Positions 143-11,192 are shown, counted from the first letter of the stretch. The stretch: DNA of 11,192 bases from an uncultured archaeon (GCA_964508365.1 CAZDTP010000091.1:1-11192), one strand, 5' to 3'. Numbers and translations are program-made. The notes: generated by a model from the letters alone, not told the origin.

Positions 143-173
143 TGCAAAAAATTATACTATATTTGTTTAAATA
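143..173 (+). promoter_or_regulatory. Conserved upstream motif copy 1 plus TATA-like box
   Basis: TGCAAAAAATTATACTATA at 143-161 (16/19 to consensus); TTTAAATA at 166-173 (+23); 85 nt before the start at 228. Confidence 0.7.
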
Positions 174-227
174 TAAAAATTTTCGATACTTTTCTTAAGA
201 AAATTTCGTTAAAGAAGCGAGATAGAA

Positions 228-506
228 TTGTTGTTTGAAGAAAAGAAGAAACCAGAAAAGAAGAAAAAGAAATTTGGAAAGACCAAATTGATTGCTTTCC
301 TTATTTTGCTGCCTATAGTATCGTTATTAGTCACTTTGCTGATCTTAGCAATCCCTTACGGTATTGCTACTAGGTTGGGGGTGGGGATGGAAGATTACTG
401 GACATATATTTTCCAAAATGGGTATTTCTGGCCTACCTTTGGTGTGGTTTTACTCGTCTCTCCTATAATCACAGCTATCTTGTGGATGGTCGTAGCGAAT
501 TATTGA
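228..506 (+). CDS. Small two-TM membrane protein; stand-alone copy of the C-terminal module of the LRR protein at 8324-10468
   Basis: 92 aa, TTG start, Lys-rich N-terminus then two hydrophobic helices. TKLIAF...SPIITA is identical to the end of the 714-aa protein. It has its own copy of the upstream motif. Confidence 0.7.
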   Translation: MLFEEKKKPEKKKKKFGKTKLIAFLILLPIVSLLVTLLILAIPYGIATRLGVGMEDYWTYIFQNGYFWPTFGVVLLVSPIITAILWMVVANY

Positions 507-605
507 TTTTAAAACGAAAAATGTCCTAATACCAAAAAAAATCAGAGAAACTAAGTTAATTATGATTGAAATCAAAATTATTGAGTAAAAATTCGTCAAA
601 CTTAC
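285..605 (+). repeat. Left copy of long direct repeat (partner 10247-10567)
   Basis: 285-466 matches 10247-10428 at 181/182 nt (one synonymous C/T at 309/10271). 467-605 stays collinear without gaps at about 72% (39 mismatches in 139 nt, hand count). Confidence 0.97.
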
Positions 606-890
606 GAAAAAGAATGCAATTGCTCCCAAAATGGTGAATGTAATGTCGCTTCCTGAATTTACTACACTATCTTTTTTTTTATTAAATTTTACATAAGCTC
701 TCAAGAAATTGCTATTTTCGATTATTTCCCATAAAACACTTATGAACAAAATTAATAATAAGCTTATAAATAATGGGATAAAGAGGATGAAGAAAATCAT
801 GTGTAATACATAACCTTTGAGAAAATGTCCCAAGCTAAAAGGGTCAACTGCCGCAATGCCGTAGTCTTCCTTGGTCCGTGCGATAATCAT
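450..890 (-). CDS. DUF2585-like integral membrane protein
   Basis: 146 aa, about 4 TM segments, with D-x-x-S-x-x-H (DPFSLGH), WE-x-x-EN (WEIIEN) and DS-x-x-NS-x-x-D (DSVVNSGSD) motifs as in DUF2585 (recognised by motif, not searched). 3' end overlaps the 228-506 gene by 57 nt. Confidence 0.8.
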   Translation of the reverse strand: MIIARTKEDYGIAAVDPFSLGHFLKGYVLHMIFFILFIPLFISLLLILFISVLWEIIENSNFLRAYVKFNKKKDSVVNSGSDITFTILGAIAFFFVSLTNFYSIILISIIINLVSLIFFGIRTFFVLKSIIRYDHPQDSCDYRRDE

Positions 891-930
891 GCTATATCCT
901 TTAAATTTTAATCCATTTTATACCGTATTG

Positions 931-961
931 TGCAAAAAATTCTACCTTATTTTTTTAAATA
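931..961 (+). promoter_or_regulatory. Conserved upstream motif copy 2 plus TATA-like box
   Basis: TGCAAAAAATTCTACCTTA at 931-949; TTTAAATA at 954-961 (+23); 77 nt before the ATG at 1008. Confidence 0.8.
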
Positions 962-1007
962 CATAACTTACTATGATTTATATAAAGAACCTTAAGTTGT
1001 TTAAAAA

Positions 1008-2411
1008 ATGTATCGAAAACACAAAATAATAAAAATTGCCTTCATTGGATTGCTTTTAGCAGTAGTATTTGGTCTAGCGAATAATCAATTAATTAGATGC
1101 GAAGGTGAAAAGCAACCATCCGAAAATTTTGAACTACAAACAGCAAATTCAGGAAATTCAGTTCAATATGAATGGAATCGTACATGGGGAGGTGTTGATG
1201 TTGATGATGGTTGGGTTGTGGCGGTTGATTCATCAAAAAATATATATCTTGCGGGAGAGACAATGAGTTATGGGGTCGGAGAACAAGATATGGTACTAGT
1301 GAAATATGACGGAAACGGCGTGCAGCAATGGAATCGTACGTGGGGTGGAGTAAATTTTGATCGGTGCTTAGGAGTCGCGATAGATTCGTCTGATAATTTG
1401 TATCTTGCAGGATTTACGTATAGTTTCGGGGCGGGAGATTCAGATATGGTACTTGTGAAATATGACGGAAATGGCATGCAGCAATGGAATCGTACATGGG
1501 GTGGAGTTGGTTCCGAAGTTTGTGTTGGGGTAGCAGTGGATTCCTCAAATAACACATATCTTTCAGGATATACCAATAGTTCTGGGGCAGGATTTGACGA
1601 TATGCTTCTAGTGAAATATGATCTAAACGGTGTGCAGCAATGGAATTGCACATGGGGTGGAAATAATGATGACTTGGCTTATGAAATAGCATTAGATTCT
1701 TCAGATAATATTTTTGTCGTAGGGAAGACAGAAAGTTTTGGAGCAGGAGGCGAGAATATATTTTTAGTTAATTATGATGGAAACGGCGTGCAGCAATGGA
1801 ATCGTACATGGGGCGGAGATGATGATGATGCTGCCTATGGAATAGCTTTAGATTCTGCAGATAATATTTATATATCGGGAAAAACAGAATCTTTTGGTGC
1901 GGGACTTCGGGATTTTGTTCTTGTCAAGTATGATAGTTCTGGTATTCAACAATGGAACCGCACCTGGGGTGGAGGCTTACCGGATTATAGCAATGGAGTA
2001 GTAACAGATTTGTCTGGTAATGTATATCTTGTAGGAGACACATTTAGTTATGCCCTAAATCCAGGAAGTAGCGATATTGCTTTAGTGAAATATGATGGAA
2101 ACGGTGTAATGCAGTGGTATCGCACGTGGGGCGGAGATTCCTGGGATTTGGGTAAAGCAGTGGCGATAGATTCATCTGGCAATGTATATATTGGAGGATT
2201 TACTTATAGTTTCGGAGTTGGAGCTTGCGACATGGTTTTAATAAAATATAAAGCAGAATCTACTTCTACAGGCATTTCAAGTTATAATCTAGTCATAATT
2301 TTAGGAGTTTTAAGTATCAGCAGTTTTTTCTTGGTTAAAAAAATAATGTCCAAAAAAACTAAATTATCGAGATTAACAGCCCAGATTATAAACTTTTATT
2401 CGTCTCGGTGA
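1008..2411 (+). CDS. Surface protein with seven SBBP-type beta-propeller repeats and a Loki-CTERM-like C-terminal anchor
   Basis: 467 aa. N-terminal basic plus hydrophobic signal; seven repeats of W-N-R-T-W-G-G...D-S-S-x-N-x-Y-x-x-G-x-T-x-S...D-x-x-L-V-K-Y-D; C-terminal ISSYNL, TM helix and KKIMSKK (from 2271). Confidence 0.95.
   Translation: MYRKHKIIKIAFIGLLLAVVFGLANNQLIRCEGEKQPSENFELQTANSGNSVQYEWNRTWGGVDVDDGWVVAVDSSKNIYLAGETMSYGVGEQDMVLVKYDGNGVQQWNRTWGGVNFDRCLGVAIDSSDNLYLAGFTYSFGAGDSDMVLVKYDGNGMQQWNRTWGGVGSEVCVGVAVDSSNNTYLSGYTNSSGAGFDDMLLVKYDLNGVQQWNCTWGGNNDDLAYEIALDSSDNIFVVGKTESFGAGGENIFLVNYDGNGVQQWNRTWGGDDDDAAYGIALDSADNIYISGKTESFGAGLRDFVLVKYDSSGIQQWNRTWGGGLPDYSNGVVTDLSGNVYLVGDTFSYALNPGSSDIALVKYDGNGVMQWYRTWGGDSWDLGKAVAIDSSGNVYIGGFTYSFGVGACDMVLIKYKAESTSTGISSYNLVIILGVLSISSFFLVKKIMSKKTKLSRLTAQIINFYSSR
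1173..2249 (+). repeat. Seven intragenic tandem units, 156-bp period (propeller blades)
   Basis: The TGG of the W-N-R-T-W-G-G motif starts at 1173, 1329, 1485, 1641, 1797, 1953 and 2115 (five 156-nt steps, then 162 nt). Confidence 0.95.
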
Positions 2412-2482
2412 TAATAGGAATAATTGCGCTGATCGGAATCGTCACGATTATAGTTTGGAATAAAAGATCTCGATCAAATTAG
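2363..2482 (+). pseudogene. Startless out-of-frame relic of a C-terminal membrane anchor
   Basis: The -1 frame relative to the SBBP gene reads IIEINSPDYKLLFVSVIIGIIALIGIVTIIVWNKRSRSN* between TAA (2360-2362) and TAG (2480-2482): about 21 hydrophobic residues, then a basic tail. Confidence 0.7.
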
Positions 2483-2489
2483 TTAATCC

Positions 2490-2497
2490 TTTTTTTT
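2490..2497 (+). terminator. Oligo-T putative archaeal terminator
   Basis: T8 tract 8 nt after the relic anchor stop codon. Confidence 0.5.
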
Positions 2498-2599
2498 AAA
2501 TTTTAGTTAATTCTAAGAATAAATAATCAAAATCTAAATTCTCTGAAAATCCGTAGTAATTAATTATATGAATGGGCTTTATAGCAATTTTCTTTTTAA

Positions 2600-2632
2600 T
2601 GCAAAAAATTCTACCTTAACTTTTTTTATATT
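2600..2632 (+). promoter_or_regulatory. Conserved upstream motif copy 3 plus TATA-like box
   Basis: TGCAAAAAATTCTACCTTA at 2600-2618 (identical to copy 2); TTTTTATATT at 2623-2632; 141 nt before the ATG at 2741. Confidence 0.75.
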
Positions 2633-2740
2633 ATAGGTGGATTAATTCAAGTAAAGAATTAGATTTTTTTAATTCTCTAAATATAAATTAAAAACTCTGA
2701 AAAAAGTGAAATCTAAGCATATTAAAATGAAGTCTTATAT

Positions 2741-3250
2741 ATGGCTCAAATCGAGAAGAAAGCTAGGCCACAATATCTCGGGAAAGTAATGAAGGGAGTT
2801 GGCGTTTTAACTCTGTTAAGTATAGTTCTTCCATCAGCTGTTCAAACGGGATCTGGAGTATGGAATTTATTGTGGTATATTGGTATTTTTTGGGGAGGAA
2901 CTGTTTATGGTGAACAATTTATAGGTTTTATTAATGATGCTTGGTACATGCCAATTGGAGTAATTACAATGGTTTTATTAATTATCGCATTAATATTTAT
3001 CGCTATATCAGCTAGAAATATAAACAAGGAGAGAAATTACAAATTAGCCACAGGAATGAGTTTATTTGGCAGTATTTTAGCCATTATTAGTCCAATTGTA
3101 TATTATTTCTATTTGAATGCAGAAATGTTTTGGGATCTATATCTTCCTGTAAGTATATTTCTTTCAATCATAGCAGGAATCTTAGGAATCATATGTGCTA
3201 TCATGGTTGGGTTTACTTCTAAATTAAGATCAAAATCAGGTGAAAAGTAG
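2741..3250 (+). CDS. Four-TM membrane protein of unknown function
   Basis: 169 aa, four hydrophobic segments, basic N- and C-termini, longer aromatic/Gly-rich loop after TM1 (WNLLWYIGIFWGG). Confidence 0.85.
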   Translation: MAQIEKKARPQYLGKVMKGVGVLTLLSIVLPSAVQTGSGVWNLLWYIGIFWGGTVYGEQFIGFINDAWYMPIGVITMVLLIIALIFIAISARNINKERNYKLATGMSLFGSILAIISPIVYYFYLNAEMFWDLYLPVSIFLSIIAGILGIICAIMVGFTSKLRSKSGEK

Positions 3251-3268
3251 AATAAAGAGGAAATTATA

Positions 3269-3305
3269 ATTGGGATTTTTCCCAATACCTTTTTTTAATT
3301 TTTTT
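3269..3305 (+). terminator. Hairpin plus T-tracts downstream of the 4-TM gene
   Basis: ATTGGGA-TTTT-TCCCAAT (7-bp stem, 3269-3286) followed by T7 at 3290-3296 and T7 at 3299-3305. Confidence 0.65.
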
Positions 3306-3412
3306 ATGACCATAGAATTTGAAAATAAATATTTAAAAATTAAAAGTTAATTTTATGGCTTAAAAAATCCTAGTAAAATGGTGATTAGTACCATTATTAA
3401 TCATGTAGATAA

Positions 3413-3443
3413 TGCAAAAAAACCTACCTTATTTGATTATATA
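3413..3443 (+). promoter_or_regulatory. Conserved upstream motif copy 4 plus TATA-like box
   Basis: TGCAAAAAAACCTACCTTA at 3413-3431 (17/19); ATTATATA at 3436-3443 (+23); 83 nt before the ATG at 3496. Confidence 0.8.
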
Positions 3444-3495
3444 GCTAATATGATTAAAGTTGATTAATAATAATTAAGACATACTAGGATAAATA

Positions 3496-5730
3496 ATGAA
3501 AATGAAAAGAGATAAAAAGAAAAATTTAATCACATTCGCAATGATGATATCTTTATTAATTACGATTATGTCACCAGCTTTCTTTACAAATGAAGAAAGA
3601 GAGCAGGATTTATTCAAATTCGGGGGTGACGGAGGGATGAAGCCAAAAACATCTTATTATGAGTGGTACCAGACTACTATGAATGTTCACTCCTATGTTA
3701 CTGGATTTCATGTTGCAGACGCTAATAATGATGGTTACAATGATCTTGTACTTGCTAACGGAAATAATAAAACAGCTTCTATTTTAATATGGAATGAATC
3801 AATGCTTTCTTGGAATGAAGAAATAATAAAAGAGTTTGGAGAAACGGTTGATGCTATTATTATTGAAGATGCAGATAATGATGGTTATAATGATTTAATT
3901 GCAAGGAACTCTGATAATTTAACAATATTATTGTGGAATGATATTTCAAAAGACTGGATAGACAAGATCCAATTTCAAATAGAAATCTATATTGTATATA
4001 ATTATATAGATAATTTCGCTGTAGAGGACGCAAATAATGACGGTTATAATGATATAGTTGTGAATGACGAGTATGAAAGCGAAATATTCTTTTGGAATAA
4101 TACAATTGATGATTGGAATGATCCCATTTTCGATGATGGTCTTGGAATAAGTTTAAATATAAAGGATGCAAATAATGATGGTTTTAATGATTTAATCGCC
4201 TATCACCCATGGAACGGTAATCCTGGTAGGAATAGGGTTATTATAAGATTGTGGAATTCTTCAATAGGGTATTGGGATCCTGAATTTAATATCACGGTAG
4301 CAGAGGATGATATTTCAAGTCTTTTTGTTGAGGATGTTAATAACGATGGCTATAATGATATTATAACTACTAACTACGAGCACTCTTTTCCATCCGAAAA
4401 CAAAATTTCCATTCGACTTTGGAATGAACATACTCAATATTGGGATCCTCTATTTACGAAACCAATTGAAGAAGCTAGTTCGATCAGTTCTGGAGATGTT
4501 AATAATGATGGCTATAGTGATATTATATTATATGGTGAAGCTTATATAAATTACCACTGGGAGGATGTAATTTTCATTTTAATATGGGATGACGAAATTA
4601 AAAACTGGAAAACTCCTGTTAATAAGATCATAGACAACCCAGAAGTTCGTCCTGGTCCAATAGTTACGGATGTGGATAATGATGGAGATTATGATATTGC
4701 TTTTTTAAGCTCTGGTAATGACGAGATCACTTTCATTTTATGGGAATTTTTCGATGTGTATAGTCCCATTGTTAATATACATGATCCACTCGATGGAGAT
4801 GTCTTTTATTACGGTCCACCGAGTTTTTTTGTAGAAGTATCAGATAGTAACTCCTCTATTGATTCAATGTGGTATAGTCTTAATGGAGGAATTACAAATT
4901 ATACATTTTATGATAATGGGACTATAAGCCTAGAAGCATGGGAGGCTGTATTGGATGGGACTGTTAAAATTACATTTTATGCAAACGATACAGAAGGAAA
5001 CATAGGGTTTAATGAAGTTACTGTATATAAAGACATGCATCTTCCCAGTCTACAATTTAATTCTCCATATTGGAATATTACCTACTCAAATTTCTTGCCT
5101 ATAGATTTTTCCTTTAATGATGACACTTTAGATGAAATCAGAATTATTATGGATAATTCACCAGAGGTTAATTATTCCGTATATCCTTATTTAGATTATG
5201 CTAATATTCTCGGAAGATGGCAAAATTTAGATGACGGACAAATTAGTATCGAATTTCACGCAAAAGATATACTGGGAAAAGATAACATATATGTTTTTGT
5301 TGTCAATAAAGACACTACTGCTCCTGTTATTACAATCAATTCTCCAAAACAATATGATAAATTTTGGGAGGATTCTCCTCATTTTGATATATCTATTGAA
5401 GAGCCTAATTTGGATAGTGTGTGGTATGAAATAGAAATATTTTATTATAAATCTGCTAATTTTAGTATAACAGAATTAACTGGAAGTGTTGATAAAGGTT
5501 TCTGGGATTCTTTAGGCGATAATTACCTTGGTTCATCATGCAGAATAACTTTTTATGCTAACGATACCCTTGGACATCTGAGTTCTAAATCTGTAGTGAT
5601 TAATCGAGAGGTTCCAGGACCATCTCTTTCTGAACTAATTATCTTGAGCTCTATTATTGGTGGAGTAGTGGTAATAAGTATCGTAATTTACTTTTCGATA
5701 AAACAAAGGCTTAAGAAAAGAAAAACATAA
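3496..5730 (+). CDS. Surface protein: seven FG-GAP/VCBS-like repeats, three Ig-like domains, C-terminal TM anchor
   Basis: 744 aa. Signal segment; seven D-x-[ND]-N-D-G-x-x-D motifs; three repeats of about 95 aa of the type P-x-I-x-I-x-x-P...W...DG...ITFYAND-x-x-G; TM helix and KQRLKKRKT. Confidence 0.95.
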   Translation: MKMKRDKKKNLITFAMMISLLITIMSPAFFTNEEREQDLFKFGGDGGMKPKTSYYEWYQTTMNVHSYVTGFHVADANNDGYNDLVLANGNNKTASILIWNESMLSWNEEIIKEFGETVDAIIIEDADNDGYNDLIARNSDNLTILLWNDISKDWIDKIQFQIEIYIVYNYIDNFAVEDANNDGYNDIVVNDEYESEIFFWNNTIDDWNDPIFDDGLGISLNIKDANNDGFNDLIAYHPWNGNPGRNRVIIRLWNSSIGYWDPEFNITVAEDDISSLFVEDVNNDGYNDIITTNYEHSFPSENKISIRLWNEHTQYWDPLFTKPIEEASSISSGDVNNDGYSDIILYGEAYINYHWEDVIFILIWDDEIKNWKTPVNKIIDNPEVRPGPIVTDVDNDGDYDIAFLSSGNDEITFILWEFFDVYSPIVNIHDPLDGDVFYYGPPSFFVEVSDSNSSIDSMWYSLNGGITNYTFYDNGTISLEAWEAVLDGTVKITFYANDTEGNIGFNEVTVYKDMHLPSLQFNSPYWNITYSNFLPIDFSFNDDTLDEIRIIMDNSPEVNYSVYPYLDYANILGRWQNLDDGQISIEFHAKDILGKDNIYVFVVNKDTTAPVITINSPKQYDKFWEDSPHFDISIEEPNLDSVWYEIEIFYYKSANFSITELTGSVDKGFWDSLGDNYLGSSCRITFYANDTLGHLSSKSVVINREVPGPSLSELIILSSIIGGVVVISIVIYFSIKQRLKKRKT
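3718..4700 (+). repeat. Seven FG-GAP-like Ca2+-binding repeat units
   Basis: Motif starts at 3718, 3868, 4027, 4165, 4333, 4495 and 4669 (DANNDGYND, DADNDGYND, DANNDGYND, DANNDGFND, DVNNDGYND, DVNNDGYSD, DVDNDGDYD); similarity is also visible at DNA level. Confidence 0.92.
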
Positions 5731-5739
5731 CTCAACAAC

Positions 5740-5756
5740 TTTTATTTTTTTATTTT
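5740..5756 (+). terminator. T-rich terminator between convergent genes
   Basis: TTTTATTTTTTTATTTT in the 33-nt gap between the stops at 5730 and 5764. Confidence 0.55.
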
Positions 5757-5763
5757 GGAATAC

Positions 5764-7068
5764 CTATAAATCTAATTTTTTAGTTTCAGAATCAGATTCA
5801 TTTTCAAGAGCTTCGTCCTTCTCTTTCAATTCTTTATAAAGCTTTTGGAAGTCTTCTGTAGTTAAGAACGGAGATTTAGCAAGCTCGAGTTTGATCTGTT
5901 CATATTCTGTTTCATCTGGGATAATGTTTTTTAATTCGTTTTCTAACTGTTTAGGTATATTAACCTGACTTTTTAAAAGCAAAGGTTGCCTGTAGCTTGT
6001 AAACATCCGAGATGGAAAATTAGAAAAGTACTTTTGAACAAGCGTATAAGCGTTCTTATATTTACTCGTATCCTTTTCGTTAGAAATTAGTTGTTTTTGG
6101 AACATTGATTCAAACTCTAACGCAAACCCACTCAATGCGTCTCTAACTAATTTTGAAGATTTTGACGAAATAAGCCCAATTGTAATGTATTTTGATTCGT
6201 GCATTAAAAGTACGCCCTCCTGAAGATGGATATCCAATAGCCCTCCTTTATGTAAAACTTCTTCACTCATGATCTGAATAGCATTTATGAATCCCGCGAA
6301 CATGACTTCACTCACGTCAGATTCGGACCAATGGTGATCGAAGAGCAAAAAACCCTCTTGATCCTTTACAGATATTCGATATAAAGTGAAAGGGAGGACA
6401 TAAATCAGTTGTGGTTGATACACTAACATGGAAGCAACAATCAGCGCTCCTACTCCAATGGAGAGGTTAGAAAAATGGATGAGAAATGGAAAAAATACAT
6501 TCATTAAATAGAAGATGGTAGATCCAATTGATGCAGTGCAAGTACCAATAAAAAAGATAGCTGATTCTCGCTTAATTAAGAAAGGAGAGTTCTTCCAGGT
6601 AATATAGCCCCAGTATAGGAGATATATCGGTAATATTGTCGATATGATTAACGCTATAATTTCAAAAGGACCTCTCCACGCAATAGTTAGAACCCCTTCT
6701 TCGATCACAATGACAATCGATTCAGGTTGGAAAACTAGATAGCAATATAAAACGACGATTCCAAACACTAATATCAACCCTCTTGAATAAATGATTTCTT
6801 TCTTAACATAATTAATGCAAAAAATAAGAAATAGGGTGGGAAAAATCAGTGTGAGTGCGTGAATGATGTTGATCGTCTTGTTTAAAAACAGATTAGATAA
6901 CCCCTCTATATAAAAAAATAAGGCTAAAAAGTTCCATGTTAACCGAAGGAAGAATATGGCTCGTATATTTCTCAGTTCCTTAGACCGAAATGTGTATATA
7001 GCCGTGAATAGAAGAATACTCCCCGTGATAAAAGTTGAGATTACATAAATAGTCCAGTTCAACACCAT
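5764..7068 (-). CDS. Seven-TM protein with cytoplasmic longin-like domain
   Basis: 434 aa. Seven hydrophobic helices in residues 1-220, then a beta-beta-alpha-beta-beta-beta-alpha pattern typical of longin-like folds (RISVKDQEGFLLF...FAGFINAIQIMSEEVL...LISSKSSKLVRDALSGFALEFESMF), then a charged helical tail. No H-box or ATPase motifs. Fold call is by pattern only. Confidence 0.85.
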   Translation of the reverse strand: MVLNWTIYVISTFITGSILLFTAIYTFRSKELRNIRAIFFLRLTWNFLALFFYIEGLSNLFLNKTINIIHALTLIFPTLFLIFCINYVKKEIIYSRGLILVFGIVVLYCYLVFQPESIVIVIEEGVLTIAWRGPFEIIALIISTILPIYLLYWGYITWKNSPFLIKRESAIFFIGTCTASIGSTIFYLMNVFFPFLIHFSNLSIGVGALIVASMLVYQPQLIYVLPFTLYRISVKDQEGFLLFDHHWSESDVSEVMFAGFINAIQIMSEEVLHKGGLLDIHLQEGVLLMHESKYITIGLISSKSSKLVRDALSGFALEFESMFQKQLISNEKDTSKYKNAYTLVQKYFSNFPSRMFTSYRQPLLLKSQVNIPKQLENELKNIIPDETEYEQIKLELAKSPFLTTEDFQKLYKELKEKDEALENESDSETKKLDL

Positions 7069-7071
7069 TTT

Positions 7072-7764
7072 TTAGGCCTCCTTCTTGACAATAGCTAATT
7101 GAGAACCTTCAAAGACTGATTTTAACATTTGGTGGACAGTGGTACTAATACATATCAAACCATTATCCTTAGTTACCAGTAGACCACAATTTTCTAATTC
7201 CTTCAAGTGGTAATATATGGTTTCACGGGTTTTTCCCAGTTTTTCGTATATTAAGAGCTTTTCAATGCATTCCTGATCAATAAACAAATAAAAAATATTT
7301 TTGTTAGTATTATCTCGCAATAAAAAATACAAAAGTCCATGTTCATCATCAATATTACTAGGAACGAATATACTATAATTTTTAAAAGAAATTTTTTTGA
7401 TATAATTGAATTTAATTAACATGTCGAGATGCCAAACCAATTGACCTGTGCTTCCCATCTTTTTAGCGTAAAATTTTCTTTTTAGAGCGGAAAAATGAAT
7501 CCCTTGATTATAAAGTATGATCTGGAATAAATAATTTCTAAATTGATTGTCTAAAACCGAATCCCGCGTAAATTTGGAACCATCAACCAGAAATTTATTA
7601 TCAATCAATAATTGAATGATTTGCAAGAGTCCTTTTCTCGGTATTTTTAACCTTCTTTTTGCTCTTTGATATAGGGTATGTGTGTCGAGAAATTTATTTT
7701 CATTCGCAATCTCTTCTGCGATTTCTAATACATCTTGCACGCTGGGATGTTCCAAAGAGAGCAT
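7072..7764 (-). CDS. Winged-helix transcriptional regulator with multiple wHTH domains (COG3398-like)
   Basis: 230 aa. N-x-G-I-H-F-S-x-L...GQLVWHLDML and RETIYYHLKELENCGLL resemble the two HTHs of COG3398, plus an extra N-terminal helical domain. The stop is 3 nt from the ATG of the 7TM gene, so they are probably one operon. Confidence 0.85.
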   Translation of the reverse strand: MLSLEHPSVQDVLEIAEEIANENKFLDTHTLYQRAKRRLKIPRKGLLQIIQLLIDNKFLVDGSKFTRDSVLDNQFRNYLFQIILYNQGIHFSALKRKFYAKKMGSTGQLVWHLDMLIKFNYIKKISFKNYSIFVPSNIDDEHGLLYFLLRDNTNKNIFYLFIDQECIEKLLIYEKLGKTRETIYYHLKELENCGLLVTKDNGLICISTTVHQMLKSVFEGSQLAIVKKEA

Positions 7765-7843
7765 GATACACCACAGAGAAGGAAAGATTGAATTTTACTA
7801 GTTAGTAATAGTTGACTTTTTAGTAAATAATTGAATTTAATTC

Positions 7844-7851
7844 TATTTAAA
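7844..7851 (-). promoter_or_regulatory. TATA box of the regulator operon
   Basis: The minus strand reads GCAAGAAAGC-TTTAAATA (purine-rich BRE-like run then TATA), 80 nt upstream of the ATG at 7764. Confidence 0.5.
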
Positions 7852-7858
7852 GCTTTCT

Positions 7859-7889
7859 TGCAAAAAATCCTCCCTAATGAATTTAAATT
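7859..7889 (+). promoter_or_regulatory. Conserved upstream motif copy 5 plus TATA-like box
   Basis: TGCAAAAAATCCTCCCTAA at 7859-7877 (16/19); TTTAAATT at 7882-7889 (+23); 60 nt before the ATG at 7919. Confidence 0.75.
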
Positions 7890-7918
7890 AGCTTAATTTA
7901 ATCACAAGTTAACTGAGA

Positions 7919-8167
7919 ATGAAAAAACACGTTAATTATCAATACTTCTTCAGTTTAATTTGTACGGTATTCGTTGTAGTTGTAGCTATTTTCATTCTTT
8001 CCTTCACCATCTTGAGTTCTTTCAGTCAGTCTAGCGAATACCCTGCCATTTATGGATACAATTTGGAAATTCTGATATTTATTTTCTCCCTAATTTCCAT
8101 TATAACCATACTCTATTGCAGATCAAGAATTAAATATTCACCACCCAATATCAACCAATATCAATAA
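7919..8167 (+). CDS. Mini-protein: N-terminal TM/signal fused almost directly to a Loki-CTERM-like anchor
   Basis: 82 aa. Hydrophobic helix, short linker (SFSQSSEY), PAIYGYNL, second helix, CRSRIK basic tail; has its own upstream motif. Confidence 0.75.
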   Translation: MKKHVNYQYFFSLICTVFVVVVAIFILSFTILSSFSQSSEYPAIYGYNLEILIFIFSLISIITILYCRSRIKYSPPNINQYQ

Positions 8168-8186
8168 ATTTGGAGTTAAAGAGTAA

Positions 8187-8219
8187 TGCAAAAAATCATA
8201 CCTTATAATTATTTATACA
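8187..8219 (+). promoter_or_regulatory. Conserved upstream motif copy 6 plus TATA-like box
   Basis: TGCAAAAAATCATACCTTA at 8187-8205 (17/19); TATTTATACA at 8210-8219; 137 nt before the TTG at 8324 and only 20 nt after the previous stop. Confidence 0.75.
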
Positions 8220-8323
8220 AATATGTAATCCTAATGTGTAAAAAACACTAGTTAAAATATATCTAAAATGAAGTATTAAAAAAAAATCAATTTTAAAGTA
8301 AATATTTAGGTAGATTTTCCATT

Positions 8324-10468
8324 TTGAAAAGAAATATAAATAATTTAGTCTTGGTTGTTATGTTCTTTGGATTTTCCCTACTATTCATAAGTTCGTCATT
8401 AATCCTCAAAAACTATGAGAATAAACCACCATTTCAACCGATTGCTAGTGCGGGTGAAATTACTCTCCTTACTCCCGAGAATATCACCTATATAACTGGA
8501 ATGGATGGTTATTTTGCAGGCACCTATAGTTTCGAAAATGAAAATATCGGTTTTAATCCTTCAAATTGGAATGTATTTGAAGATGGTGGCTACGTGAATA
8601 TAAAGGATTCCTATTTAGGACATAATGAGGTGGTAGAATTATGTAAGAATTCTGGTGGAATTGTAAGTTGTCGAAATTTATTTGAAAACAAGACTAGTGG
8701 ATTAATTGAATTTTGGTTTTGCTCAAATAGAACAGATCAGGAATTTTTAATAAGGATCAGTGATGGAGAATTTTATGGTGGCAGGATTGAAATCAAATTT
8801 GGGGATGATGGTCAATTAAAGGTACTTGATGGTATTCAAATCTCGAATATTATTTCATATGTAGGAGATACTTGGTATCACTTAAAAATTGAGTGGGATA
8901 TTTTTCAGGGAGATTTTGATTGGAACTTAAGTTTGAATGATACAGAGGTTGGAACTTTTTCTTTTTACGGTAATCCTTTTAATCTCAATAGGATCATATT
9001 TAGTAGTGATATAAGTTCTCCTTCTGAGAATGCATATTTTTACATAGATGCAGTTGGTTATTCTTGGGATCAAGAATACGAAATTGGGGATAATCTATAT
9101 GAAGGATTATTGGTAAACTTTGAAACAACTTTGAGTTTTGAAACATTTTGGTGTGAATTAGATGGTATTCATTACAAGAATTTTATAGGGAACCATACAA
9201 TTCCAATGATACAATATGGCTCCCATTCCCTACAGGTTTTTGGAACCATATCTTCTACAACCTACTCTTCAAACATCGTTCATTTTACAACCTTGGTGGA
9301 TAGGTGGGGTCCATCAATAATCATTAAATCACCAGGTGAAAATAGTATCCATATCTTTAGGCCTCCTATATGTGAAATTGAAGTAAATGATCCCAATGGA
9401 GTAAATGCGACTTATTACATGCTCACATATGGAGGGGTATCCTCTTCACTAACGAAATGGGAAGGTTTTATCAATTCAGATGTCTGGAATTCAGCACCTG
9501 ATGGAGAGATAACCATTACTTTTTATTCTCAAGATGACCTTGGAAATTGGTCATGGAAAAGTATCACGGTAATAAGAGCTCTTAAGTTATTGATTCTAAT
9601 CATTGGATTACCCTTATTGGTTTGTATAGCATCACTAGGGATTTGGTTATTTTTGCGAAAAAGAAAGAAACTACGGGAAACTGTGGAAAACATGAGATAT
9701 GAGGATCTTCAAGAAAACATGGTGATCGTGAAAGGAAAGAAGTACAAAAACAAATCATTGGAAGGACTAACTTTGCGCAATCTTAAGATTTCCTATGTAG
9801 GTGAAATATTTGGGTTCGAACAGCTTTCAGAACTTAAGAAGTTAAACTTAGCTCAGAATAACCTGACCTCTATTAAGGAACTGGGACATAGCGAGAGCCT
9901 AACAGAATTGGATTTATCCCAAAACAAGATAGTAAACTTGTCAGGGATTGAGAAACTTACTAACCTGAAAGTTCTCTATCTAGATGAAAATAAGATTGTA
10001 GATATCTCACCAATATCGGGGCTTTCCCATCTTCAAATACTTCATATCAGACATAACGATCTTCCCACTTTGGATCCCTTATACGACCTAATTAACTTAA
10101 GTTCCCTTTGCATAGAAGGAAATTATAAGATCGTGTATTCTTGGGAAAATACCTTGTTCAAACGTCTTCGCTATCTTGATATCAGGCCAAAACCGACAGT
10201 TAGTTATCAAGAAAGCGATAAAGTAAAGAGTAAGAAAGGGAATACAAAATTGATTGCTTTCCTTATTTTGTTGCCTATAGTATCGTTATTAGTCACTTTG
10301 CTGATCTTAGCAATCCCTTACGGTATTGCTACTAGGTTGGGGGTGGGGATGGAAGATTACTGGACATATATTTTCCAAAATGGGTATTTCTGGCCTACCT
10401 TTGGTGTGGTTTTACTCGTCTCTCCTATCATCACCGCCTTTTTGTGGTTTGTTGTACAGGATTATTGA
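8324..10468 (+). CDS. Receptor-like membrane protein: extracellular LamG-like and Ig-like domains, TM, cytoplasmic leucine-rich repeats, C-terminal two-TM hairpin
   Basis: 714 aa, TTG start. N-terminal TM; about 390-aa beta-rich region; TM at about 9587-9655 followed by RKRKK; six LRRs at about 9758-10130, four of them exact 22-aa SDS22-like units (e.g. LTELDLSQNKIVNLSGIEKLTN); two more TM helices. Confidence 0.93.
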   Translation: MKRNINNLVLVVMFFGFSLLFISSSLILKNYENKPPFQPIASAGEITLLTPENITYITGMDGYFAGTYSFENENIGFNPSNWNVFEDGGYVNIKDSYLGHNEVVELCKNSGGIVSCRNLFENKTSGLIEFWFCSNRTDQEFLIRISDGEFYGGRIEIKFGDDGQLKVLDGIQISNIISYVGDTWYHLKIEWDIFQGDFDWNLSLNDTEVGTFSFYGNPFNLNRIIFSSDISSPSENAYFYIDAVGYSWDQEYEIGDNLYEGLLVNFETTLSFETFWCELDGIHYKNFIGNHTIPMIQYGSHSLQVFGTISSTTYSSNIVHFTTLVDRWGPSIIIKSPGENSIHIFRPPICEIEVNDPNGVNATYYMLTYGGVSSSLTKWEGFINSDVWNSAPDGEITITFYSQDDLGNWSWKSITVIRALKLLILIIGLPLLVCIASLGIWLFLRKRKKLRETVENMRYEDLQENMVIVKGKKYKNKSLEGLTLRNLKISYVGEIFGFEQLSELKKLNLAQNNLTSIKELGHSESLTELDLSQNKIVNLSGIEKLTNLKVLYLDENKIVDISPISGLSHLQILHIRHNDLPTLDPLYDLINLSSLCIEGNYKIVYSWENTLFKRLRYLDIRPKPTVSYQESDKVKSKKGNTKLIAFLILLPIVSLLVTLLILAIPYGIATRLGVGMEDYWTYIFQNGYFWPTFGVVLLVSPIITAFLWFVVQDY

Positions 10469-10567
10469 TTTTAAAACACTATATGCCCTAATACTGATAA
10501 AAAGCAAAGAAATTAGTCCAAGTATGAGAGAAATCACGATTATCGCAACGAAATTCATCAAACTCAC
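10247..10567 (+). repeat. Right copy of long direct repeat (partner 285-605)
   Basis: Constant offset of 9962 nt with no indels across 321 nt. Confidence 0.97.
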
Positions 10568-10603
10568 ATAAAATAATACTAGCATAAAGAGAAACGATAA
10601 CTC
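10412..10603 (-). pseudogene. 5'-truncated paralog of the DUF2585-like gene (or a 57-aa small protein from the ATG at 10585)
   Basis: Not in the ORF track. Reads MLVLFYVSLMNFVAIIVISLILGLISLLFISIRAYSVLKSIILYNKPQKGGDDRRDE*, 31/57 identical to the C-terminus of the 450-890 protein with the stop at the equivalent position. In-frame stop at 10604-10606; all conserved H/E/D motifs missing. Confidence 0.8.
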
Positions 10604-10736
10604 TTACAATAACAATTCATACGGACGACTACGACTATACCGTTAAAAAAGCTTCATGGGATTAAATTAAAAAAAAACTACTTTTTACCTTATTTCTTCT
10701 TAATAATTTGAAATTTATGAAGGTTAAATCATCTGA

Positions 10737-10767
10737 ATTGATAAATTCTACCTTTTTTGGATATAAT
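10737..10767 (+). promoter_or_regulatory. Degenerate seventh copy of the upstream motif
   Basis: ATTGATAAATTCTACCTTT (13/19, right half intact) with GATATAAT at +23; no sizeable ORF follows before 11165. Confidence 0.35.
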
Positions 10768-11164
10768 CCAAGATATTTAATTTAATTAATAAAAAGAAAG
10801 AAATAAAAAAGTATTTCTCCATTTCCTATTTTCAACAACTCCTAATATTTCAATCAATTAAAAGATAACTACTTTTATATAAATTGAATCATATAATAAT
10901 TAAGAAAAATCCTTAAAGTAAATCAGTGAATAATCTTGAGCGAGGTTACTATATTCTTTGTAATGGGAACCAAGGATATTCCACTAATTCCAAGTAATAG
11001 ATATATTTAAGAATTGGTTATGTAATCGAAGAGATCAAAAAATTTTTAAAACATCTATCTACACTTTCACAAAACGAACAAATAAAAAACAAGGTTATCT
11101 CCTAAAAAAGATGACCCCAAAGAATTACAGTTAAATTAAAAATAGAAAAGAGTGGAGGAAACAA

Positions 11165-11192
11165 ATGGGAATAGAATGTCCAAAGTGTAAAG
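11165..11192 (+). CDS. 5' end of a probable zinc-ribbon (CxxC) protein, cut by the window edge
   Basis: GGAGG-AAACAA-ATG then MGIECPKCK; only 9 codons visible. Confidence 0.55.

Follow-up and report, generated by a model that had tools for sequence, protein, structure and literature searches.

The stretch of DNA analysed here (the window) is the entire contig C91, 11,192 nt, from the draft genome of an uncultured archaeon, and the ends of the gene island that it carries thus lie outside our view. All six plus-strand genes of this 11-kb island, which encode unrelated membrane and surface proteins, are preceded by a module of ~32 nt in which a box, TGCAAAAAAWYMTMCCTWAT, is followed by a TATA box. 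A minus-strand operon in the middle of the island encodes a protein with three predicted winged helices (the winged helix-turn-helix, or wHTH, protein) and a membrane protein with about seven transmembrane helices (7TM) and a predicted longin/roadblock-fold domain. The interpretation we favour, with slightly more confidence than doubt, is that the island is a small regulon in which the wHTH protein binds the box, its 7TM-longin partner acts as a sensor, and the surface genes are co-expressed. An earlier note, made by a model from the sequence alone, had proposed a co-regulated surface-protein island with a built-in regulator pair; this part of the proposal was supported, as the box is exclusive to the island within the genome and its variants lie beside paralogous pairs.

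The host genome is a draft of 4.07 Mb in 149 contigs with 31.8% GC, an estimated completeness of 100% and an estimated contamination of 3.65%. The tetranucleotide composition of C91 is typical of this genome (r = 0.982; fifth of the 22 contigs of 8-15 kb), which argues against a foreign or mis-binned contig. The names of regulator homologues (e.g. Promethearchaeota, Lokiarchaeota) fit the Asgard, specifically Lokiarchaeial, origin that the note had assigned. Rfam and tRNA scans of the window gave no matches, and a scan for bacterial promoters and terminators was uninformative because the host is an archaeon.

The box and TATA module in the window

The six copies that had been noticed by inspection were all recovered. 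Scores are from a position matrix trained on 12 sites.

143..174, plus strand: module 1, 29.8 bits; before the 92-aa hairpin open reading frame (ORF); likeness to module 2 extends to ~210
931..962, plus strand: module 2, 41 bits; between back-to-back TATA boxes of the DUF2585 gene (minus strand) and gene 3 (plus strand)
2600..2631, plus strand: module 3, 34.8 bits
3413..3444, plus strand: module 4, 36.9 bits
7859..7890, plus strand: module 5, 33.8 bits; 94 nt upstream of the wHTH start, on the opposite strand
8187..8218, plus strand: module 6, 33.8 bits; starts 20 nt past the gene 8 stop and serves gene 9

At the six promoters the gap between the end of the box (TGYAAAAAAWYMTHCCTWAT) and the TATA box is 3 to 5 nt, and the module-to-start-codon distance ranges from 60 to 141 nt. 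The sequence common to the six modules is limited to the box and the TATA box (~32 nt) and the flanks differ; modules 1 and 2 are alike over 71 nt, past the common 32 nt. The six window sites scored 30-41 bits versus 17.2 bits for the runner-up in the 4.07-Mb genome, and that runner-up lies directly 3' of a paralogous wHTH-7TM pair on contig C88. A regular expression covering the first 15 nt, TGCAAAAAA[AT][ACT][ACT]T[AC]C, matched seven times in 4.07 Mb, six of them in the window. A chance origin of the six modules is excluded. As the six strong sites, all on this contig, stand so far above the next best site genome-wide, we conclude that the module is not the host's general promoter; the motif clearly does not stand before most genes of this genome.

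The divergent spacers between the DUF2585 gene and gene 3 (891-930) and between the wHTH gene and gene 8 (7838-7858) share one arrangement, in which 6-7 nt separate a minus-strand TATA box from the 5' end of the box. A single protein bound there could thus influence both promoters, the regulator's own included. The position of the DUF2585 minus-strand TATA box (891-930) also predicts a leaderless transcript.

The wHTH-7TM pair and the box in relatives

The two genes of the minus-strand operon are 3 nt apart.

7072..7764, minus strand: 230-aa winged-helix (wHTH) protein, three tandem winged-helix domains; proposed box-binding regulator
5764..7068, minus strand: 434-aa membrane protein, ~seven-helix N-terminal half, longin/roadblock-fold domain (residues ~228-330), charged helical tail

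The predicted structure of the 230-aa protein consists of three tandem winged helices, with a predicted local distance difference test score (pLDDT) of 90 and a predicted template modelling score (pTM) of 0.80. A structure search yielded no solved structure matching the whole protein; its nearest structural analogues are the tandem winged-helix proteins SelB, SarS, ESCRT-II, Rpc34 and ScpB. PF24266 is also listed as a precomputed match for the regulator or its homologues. We infer that this protein binds the box in a sequence-specific manner. The N-terminal half of the 434-aa protein has six to seven helices by hydropathy (residues 2-217), and PF16927 (HisKA_7TM-like) scored 18.2 bits in this protein, below its cut-off of 28.6. 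The secondary-structure order of the tail is beta-beta-alpha-beta-beta-beta-alpha (E7-14, E19-24, H32-51, E55-60, E63-69, E73-79, H84-106). Its model is of moderate confidence, with a mean pLDDT of 68 and core blocks of 80-94, and the structural matches are zeta-COP, AP2 sigma, sedlin, roadblock and MglB (E 1e-4 to 5e-3, target-normalised TM-scores 0.5-0.68). No longin or roadblock Pfam family was detected in the 434-aa protein at E up to 0.1, and the description of the mid-locus genes as a wHTH plus 7TM-longin operon holds at the level of predicted fold. A Pfam search of the window proteins detected no kinase, receiver or cyclase domain. No description of the wHTH plus 7TM-longin module, or of the box, was found in the searchable literature.

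The wHTH-7TM two-gene module occurs in two further pairs in the host genome, and pairs are present in 38 of the 40 relatives sampled. Local alignment of intergenic regions established that the relatives' box carries T at position 3. An exact-pattern scan of 41 congeners, which returned scattered chance matches, was discarded as misleading because its pattern forced C at position 3 and M at position 14. The exact 19-nt pattern likewise gave single chance matches only in genome and metagenome contigs, among the matches listed for metagenomes. Counts of 9-mers and a first motif-family finder yielded too much noise in DNA of 32% GC and overlooked the module of one relative (G041:C61), and a search for related loci with the 7TM protein as query found nothing.

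Matrix scanning was carried out with a threshold of 13 bits on 19 pair-centred loci of relatives (~335 kb), none of which had been used to train the matrix. These loci contained 16 matches of at least 13 bits, spread over 12 loci, versus about 0.25 expected from the background of the window's own genome (3 matches in 4.06 Mb). Eight control loci of relatives without the pair (~116 kb) contained no match of at least 13 bits. Across many paralogous loci with otherwise unrelated neighbouring genes, the box occupies one of two stereotyped positions. One is 70-160 nt upstream of the wHTH gene, but on the other strand (the window, at -94; L046-L049, L053, L062), and the other is immediately 3' of the 7TM gene (L050, L052, L057, L058, C88); most relatives have a single copy, at the regulator's divergent promoter. 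Pattern matches outside the training set also adjoin wHTH genes (G056:C6, G006:C25, G041:C6, G024:C30). Three variants of the box track wHTH clades, with seven label changes on the tree versus 14.4 in shuffles and none of 200 shuffles as low. The comparative evidence for the proposed regulatory link between the box and the wHTH protein is strong.

Several observations weigh against this link. The Pfam scores of the 230-aa protein are below cut-off (PF24266, 25 versus 31; HTH_5, 18.4 versus 22), and some of its structural analogues (SelB, ESCRT-II, ScpB) are not transcription factors. Seven of 22 paralogous loci (the window, C88 and 20 fetched pair loci) have no match of at least 13 bits; one of the seven, L063, bears a variant module that scores below 13 bits. 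The closest orthologous pairs, L293 (78-79% identical) and L294 (76%), have an orthologous spacer with a degenerate box or none. G010:C4 bears four boxes but has no regulator gene close to them, and no 7TM match was obtained in G010. The count of six sites covers the assembled sequence, i.e. a 149-contig draft with 3.65% estimated contamination. Finally, the co-variation of box variant and wHTH clade is weak evidence, consistent with the link and not decisive, because loci of common ancestry inherit the regulator and its adjoining promoter together.

Many of these points would also be explained if the box were a true regulatory element read by another factor, such as a TFB/TBP paralogue or an unlinked regulator, with the wHTH-7TM operon merely a member of the regulon and perhaps having a membrane or trafficking role. 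The tandem winged-helix architecture would suit this possibility, as it is also that of the non-transcriptional ESCRT-II, ScpB and SelB, and the sub-threshold Pfam matches, the unaccompanied boxes of G010:C4 and the lack of a clear box at L293 and L294 point the same way. We nevertheless consider it unlikely. Against it stand the stereotyped placement of the box by wHTH genes amid unrelated neighbours and the tracking of wHTH clades by box variants, and G010 does encode a clade-matched wHTH protein with an adjoining box, lacking a 7TM partner (L252, i.e. G010:C43).

The regulon interpretation also draws on replicate arrays in relatives. A metagenomic contig (L289/L290) carries a pair 66-68% identical to that of the window and four divergent box-headed units. 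Its first unit encodes a 76-aa homologue of the window's 82-aa protein, and as in the window the box precedes the ATG by 60 nt; the later units encode a membrane protein of 107 aa and two SBBP propellers. Homologues of the 82-aa protein carry the same box in other genomes as well (including G010:C43), and L293 also has the homologue. The four box-headed units of G010:C4 encode an anchored 794-aa protein, a 1229-aa SBBP-lectin protein and two others, and G041:C61 has a window-like layout with four copies of a ~100-nt variant module beside a pair whose two genes are 38 nt apart. Single boxes elsewhere head a CBM96 protein and other secreted proteins. Most genes behind a box encode proteins that are secreted or membrane-bound (SBBP, CBM96, anchored proteins). 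The pair and first unit thus appear to persist while further units vary in kind and order, as the earlier note had anticipated for syntenic loci.

These arrays bear on a second alternative, in which there is no dedicated regulation and a strong promoter segment was copied during local duplication and recombination, the copies being still undecayed. The extended likeness of modules 1 and 2 over 71 nt, the 77-82% identity among the ~100-nt modules of G041:C61, and the presence of duplication, conversion and deletion at the locus would all be expected of such copying. However, five of the six copies in the window have only the box and TATA box in common, start codons lie at distances of 60 to 141 nt, and the genes downstream of the boxes are unrelated. 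In addition, the same box is retained in different species ahead of both homologous and non-homologous genes, which argues for selection on the box itself. We regard promoter copying as distinctly improbable.

Further observations were made at the related loci. In G041:C61 a 92-nt direct repeat, 90% identical (L063, 2590-2681 and 11974-12064), brackets the pair and the unit array, echoing the bounding repeat of the window described below. A different upstream module of ~110-150 nt precedes four minus-strand genes of G010:C43, including a wHTH paralogue (L252, 827-942, 7889-8041, 8571-8716 and 10031-10176), and locus-specific promoter modules may therefore be common in the genus. G013:C28 has, close to an SBBP gene, an intergenic direct repeat of 427 nt whose copies are 84% identical (L254, 3356-3762 and 5070-5489). 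Ras/Rab-like small GTPase genes lie within a few kb of related regulator loci (L061, 8562-9101; L252, 2914-3468; L289, 372-530), and large TPR-like proteins are also encoded at two of these three loci. Such GTPase genes are of interest because longin/roadblock domains usually work with small GTPases; none is present among the genes of the window.

Gene content and remodelling of the locus

The window contains nine credible genes, six on the plus strand and three on the minus strand. Those outside the regulator operon, and the traces of rearrangement, are as follows.

228..506, plus strand: 92-aa ORF with TTG start; K-rich N-terminus and two-helix membrane hairpin; partial copy of the LRR-hairpin gene tail
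276..615, no strand assigned: direct repeat, left copy; core 284-466, flank 467-615
450..890, minus strand: full-length DUF2585 membrane protein (PF10755), 146 aa; convergent with the hairpin ORF and divergent from gene 3
1008..2411, plus strand: 467-aa anchored surface protein (gene 3); N-terminal helix, SBBP beta-propeller (52-residue repeats), C-terminal anchor
2363..2482, plus strand: orphan anchor in another frame than gene 3; 39 codons and a stop, membrane helix followed by KRSRS, no start codon
2741..3250, plus strand: 169-aa protein, four to five membrane helices
3496..5730, plus strand: 744-aa anchored surface protein; N-terminal helix, seven FG-GAP repeats, three Ig-like modules, C-terminal anchor
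7919..8167, plus strand: 82-aa two-helix membrane protein (gene 8); in relatives, the conserved first unit adjoining the regulator
8324..10468, plus strand: 714-aa protein, whole gene; lectin-Ig part and LRR-hairpin part
8324..9718, plus strand: N-terminal part of the 714-aa protein; signal helix, lectin/CBM-like domain, Ig-like modules, membrane anchor (residues 422-440), RKRKK stop-transfer stretch
9719..10468, plus strand: C-terminal part of the 714-aa protein, from internal Met 466; LRR domain and membrane hairpin
10238..10577, no strand assigned: direct repeat, right copy; core 10246-10428
10412..10585, minus strand: truncated DUF2585 paralogue, last 57 codons only

Pfam scores exceeded the respective cut-offs for DUF2585 (37.2 versus 25 bits), for SBBP in the 467-aa protein (90.1 versus 20.5), for FG-GAP_3 in the 744-aa protein (72.2 versus 26.9) and for LRR_4 in the 714-aa protein (60.8 versus 27); the 169-aa protein had no match in the Pfam family search. 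Congener homologues of the 467-aa protein are 50-53% identical. Among the six plus-strand genes T-tracts follow only genes 3, 4 and 5, in agreement with the three that had been seen by inspection: a T8 tract lies at 2490, 3' of the orphan anchor, a hairpin plus T7 tracts lie directly 3' of the 169-aa gene, and a T7 tract at 5745 lies downstream of the 744-aa gene.

The earlier note had also held that the proteins reuse the same parts. An N-terminal helix and a C-terminal anchor are indeed present in the 467-, 744- and 714-aa proteins, and the Ig-like modules of the latter two are homologous (28-30% identity, E 3e-9). The two propellers, by contrast, belong to different families, SBBP and FG-GAP, and are not the same part. 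With propellers of different families and Ig-like modules merely 28-30% identical, the common use of parts among the large proteins appears to be architectural rather than recent.

The direct repeat was confirmed as bounding the block. Its core is identical at 181 of 183 positions (284-466 versus 10246-10428), the adjoining 149 nt are 72% identical, and there is no similarity beyond. An old duplication with a recent gene-conversion tract explains this mosaic; purifying selection alone would not hold synonymous sites identical. The contig ends are 245 and 615 nt away from the copies, whose unrelated outer flanks rule out a circular element. The right copy retains the LRR gene and the truncated DUF2585 paralogue and the left copy retains the full DUF2585 gene and the hairpin only, which now stands behind a box module resembling module 2 over 71 nt. 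In the duplicated hairpin, 74 of 86 residues are identical between the 92-aa ORF and the end of the 714-aa protein. In five congeners the LRR-hairpin gene stands alone, encodes 246-253 aa and is convergent with DUF2585; its product aligns end to end with residues 467-714 of the 714-aa protein. This alignment shows the 714-aa protein to be an anchored lectin-Ig protein fused to an LRR-hairpin gene at internal Met 466. The orphan anchor is probably the 3' remnant of a lost anchored-protein gene. Of the four traces of part swapping claimed previously, the orphan anchor, the duplicated hairpin and the truncated paralogue were thus seen again; the four reduce to about three events, and the 82-aa 'empty anchor' protein is a conserved gene rather than evidence of swapping.

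It is scarcely credible that the bounding repeat, including its near-identical core, and the 714-aa fusion are artefacts of metagenome-bin assembly. The contig is short, the draft comprises 149 contigs, and mis-joined reads could give rise to a 183-nt near-identical stretch. The positions of the copies well inside the contig and their unrelated outer flanks argue against circular overlap, however, and the 72% identical flanks indicate two real paralogous copies. Moreover, the reading frame is intact across the fusion, and the six boxes are independent of the repeat.

The prediction that breakpoints would fall at the motif failed. Recognisable breakpoints lie at 276, 615/10577, 2363-2482, 9719 and 10968, none of them at a box, and the box thus behaves as a promoter or operator and not as a recombination joint. 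This result bears on the idea of an integron-like cassette system in which units are shuffled by recombination at the box. The units are compact and back to back (the gene 9 box begins 20 nt past the gene 8 stop), and array content differs between the window and L289, in keeping with a cassette system. Against it, a Pfam family search identified no recombinase among the nine ORFs of the window, the orientation of the box and its spacing to the TATA box are fixed, and most relatives have a single copy at the regulator's divergent promoter; we find this explanation very improbable. The lack of a recombinase gene agrees with the earlier suggestion of diversification by homologous recombination rather than by a dedicated recombinase. 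Such recombination is evidenced only once, by the gene-conversion tract.

The region right of the repeat contains three further conserved stretches. The first (10614-10815) is 74-88% identical to single places in G048, G004, G008 and G011 and has no second copy in the host genome. It resembles the 3' remnant of a lost gene with its downstream spacer, and a degenerate half-box, TTGATAAATTCTACCTT, lies within it at 10737. The second (10802-10968), 167 nt of non-coding sequence, matches G050:C80 and G041:C96 at 93-95% identity, far more than coding sequences of the genus show. Its counterpart in these contigs is the upstream region of a gene for a 160-aa membrane protein; the similarity halts right after ATGGGA at 10968, and the 160-aa gene is missing from the window. 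The third (11026-11192) is 91% identical to G016:C38 and comprises a conserved upstream region with a hairpin and the start of a gene for a 44-aa double zinc-ribbon mini-protein (MGIECPKCK...), which runs past the contig end.

Proposed circuit and comparison with known systems

In the regulon that we propose, the box would serve as the operator for the locally encoded triple winged-helix protein. The activity of this protein would be set by its operon partner, the 7TM protein with its cytoplasmic longin/roadblock-fold domain as candidate sensor, and signalling would proceed without a kinase, receiver or cyclase domain. We infer the signalling from the 7TM protein to the wHTH protein, and whether the latter would activate or repress is not readable from sequence. 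The output would comprise the three large anchored surface proteins (the SBBP propeller protein, the FG-GAP propeller protein with Ig modules, and the lectin-Ig receptor fused to the LRR-hairpin) and three small membrane proteins. The regulator operon itself and the DUF2585 gene are probably also co-regulated, because a single box sits between back-to-back TATA boxes in both divergent spacers. The array would turn over as whole promoter-plus-gene units are gained, lost, duplicated, fused or altered by gene conversion, with the pair and first unit staying in place. More tentatively, we suggest that Loki-type Asgard archaea might possess a kinase-free two-protein system in which a 7TM-longin receptor controls a triple-wHTH factor acting at a TGYAAAAAA-TCCTNCCTT box by the TATA box, switching on species-specific surface arrays that evolve by unit turnover.

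To our knowledge, next to nothing has been learned of the means by which Asgard archaea perceive their environment or regulate their cell surface. The Asgard surface mediates syntrophic contacts that are central to models of eukaryote origin, and the longin fold is otherwise known from eukaryotic trafficking and GTPase regulation. The locus offers a concrete, testable circuit consisting of a candidate 7TM plus longin-fold receptor, a candidate DNA-binding partner, a defined 20-nt putative operator and a short target list. The box can be used for regulon prediction in any genome of the group and as a probe for binding assays with recombinant protein, for which culture of the organism is not required.

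Longin/roadblock domains (zeta-COP, AP sigma, sedlin/TRAPP, MglB, LAMTOR, Asgard roadblock) share the predicted fold and element order of the 7TM tail. Unlike these, the window domain is fused to a 7TM part and has no Pfam match, and no GTPase gene lies in the window, Ras-like genes being found near three related loci. Integron cassette arrays likewise consist of compact one-directional units whose content varies between relatives; unlike them, the window has no integrase and no structured recombination site, its common element is a promoter box, and its breakpoints lie elsewhere. ArnR and ArnR1 of Sulfolobus are membrane-bound helix-turn-helix activators of the archaellum promoter, and thus resemble the present system in membrane-linked control of an archaeal surface structure via boxes just upstream of the core promoter. 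However, ArnR is one polypeptide with its own membrane helices, whereas the window encodes separate putative sensor and DNA-binding proteins with no sequence relationship to it.

The logic of the proposed system is closest to pairs of a membrane sensor and a winged-helix repressor, such as BlaR1-BlaI, and to the locally regulated surface-protein clusters of Bacteroidetes polysaccharide-utilisation loci. The latter, governed by extracytoplasmic function (ECF) sigma/anti-sigma or hybrid two-component systems, also combine a local membrane sensor-regulator with a neighbouring, species-variable set of surface glycan-binding and propeller proteins; the window differs in its wholly different parts, its archaeal host and its lack of transport or enzyme genes. 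In BlaR1-BlaI and MecR1-MecI of Staphylococcus and Bacillus, a membrane sensor shares a transcript with a winged-helix DNA-binding protein, as would the candidate counterparts here. The operator, putative in the window, lies in the spacer common with a divergent target gene, so the pair probably regulates itself as well. Unlike BlaR1 and MecR1, the candidate sensor of the window has no penicillin-binding or protease domain, and has instead a 7TM part with a longin/roadblock-fold tail. Unlike the BlaI and MecI systems, the system proposed for the window has a regulator with three predicted winged helices, archaeal TATA-dependent promoters and six or more putative targets. What sets it apart is its parts, i.e. 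the 7TM-longin candidate sensor, the triple winged-helix protein and the archaeal promoters.

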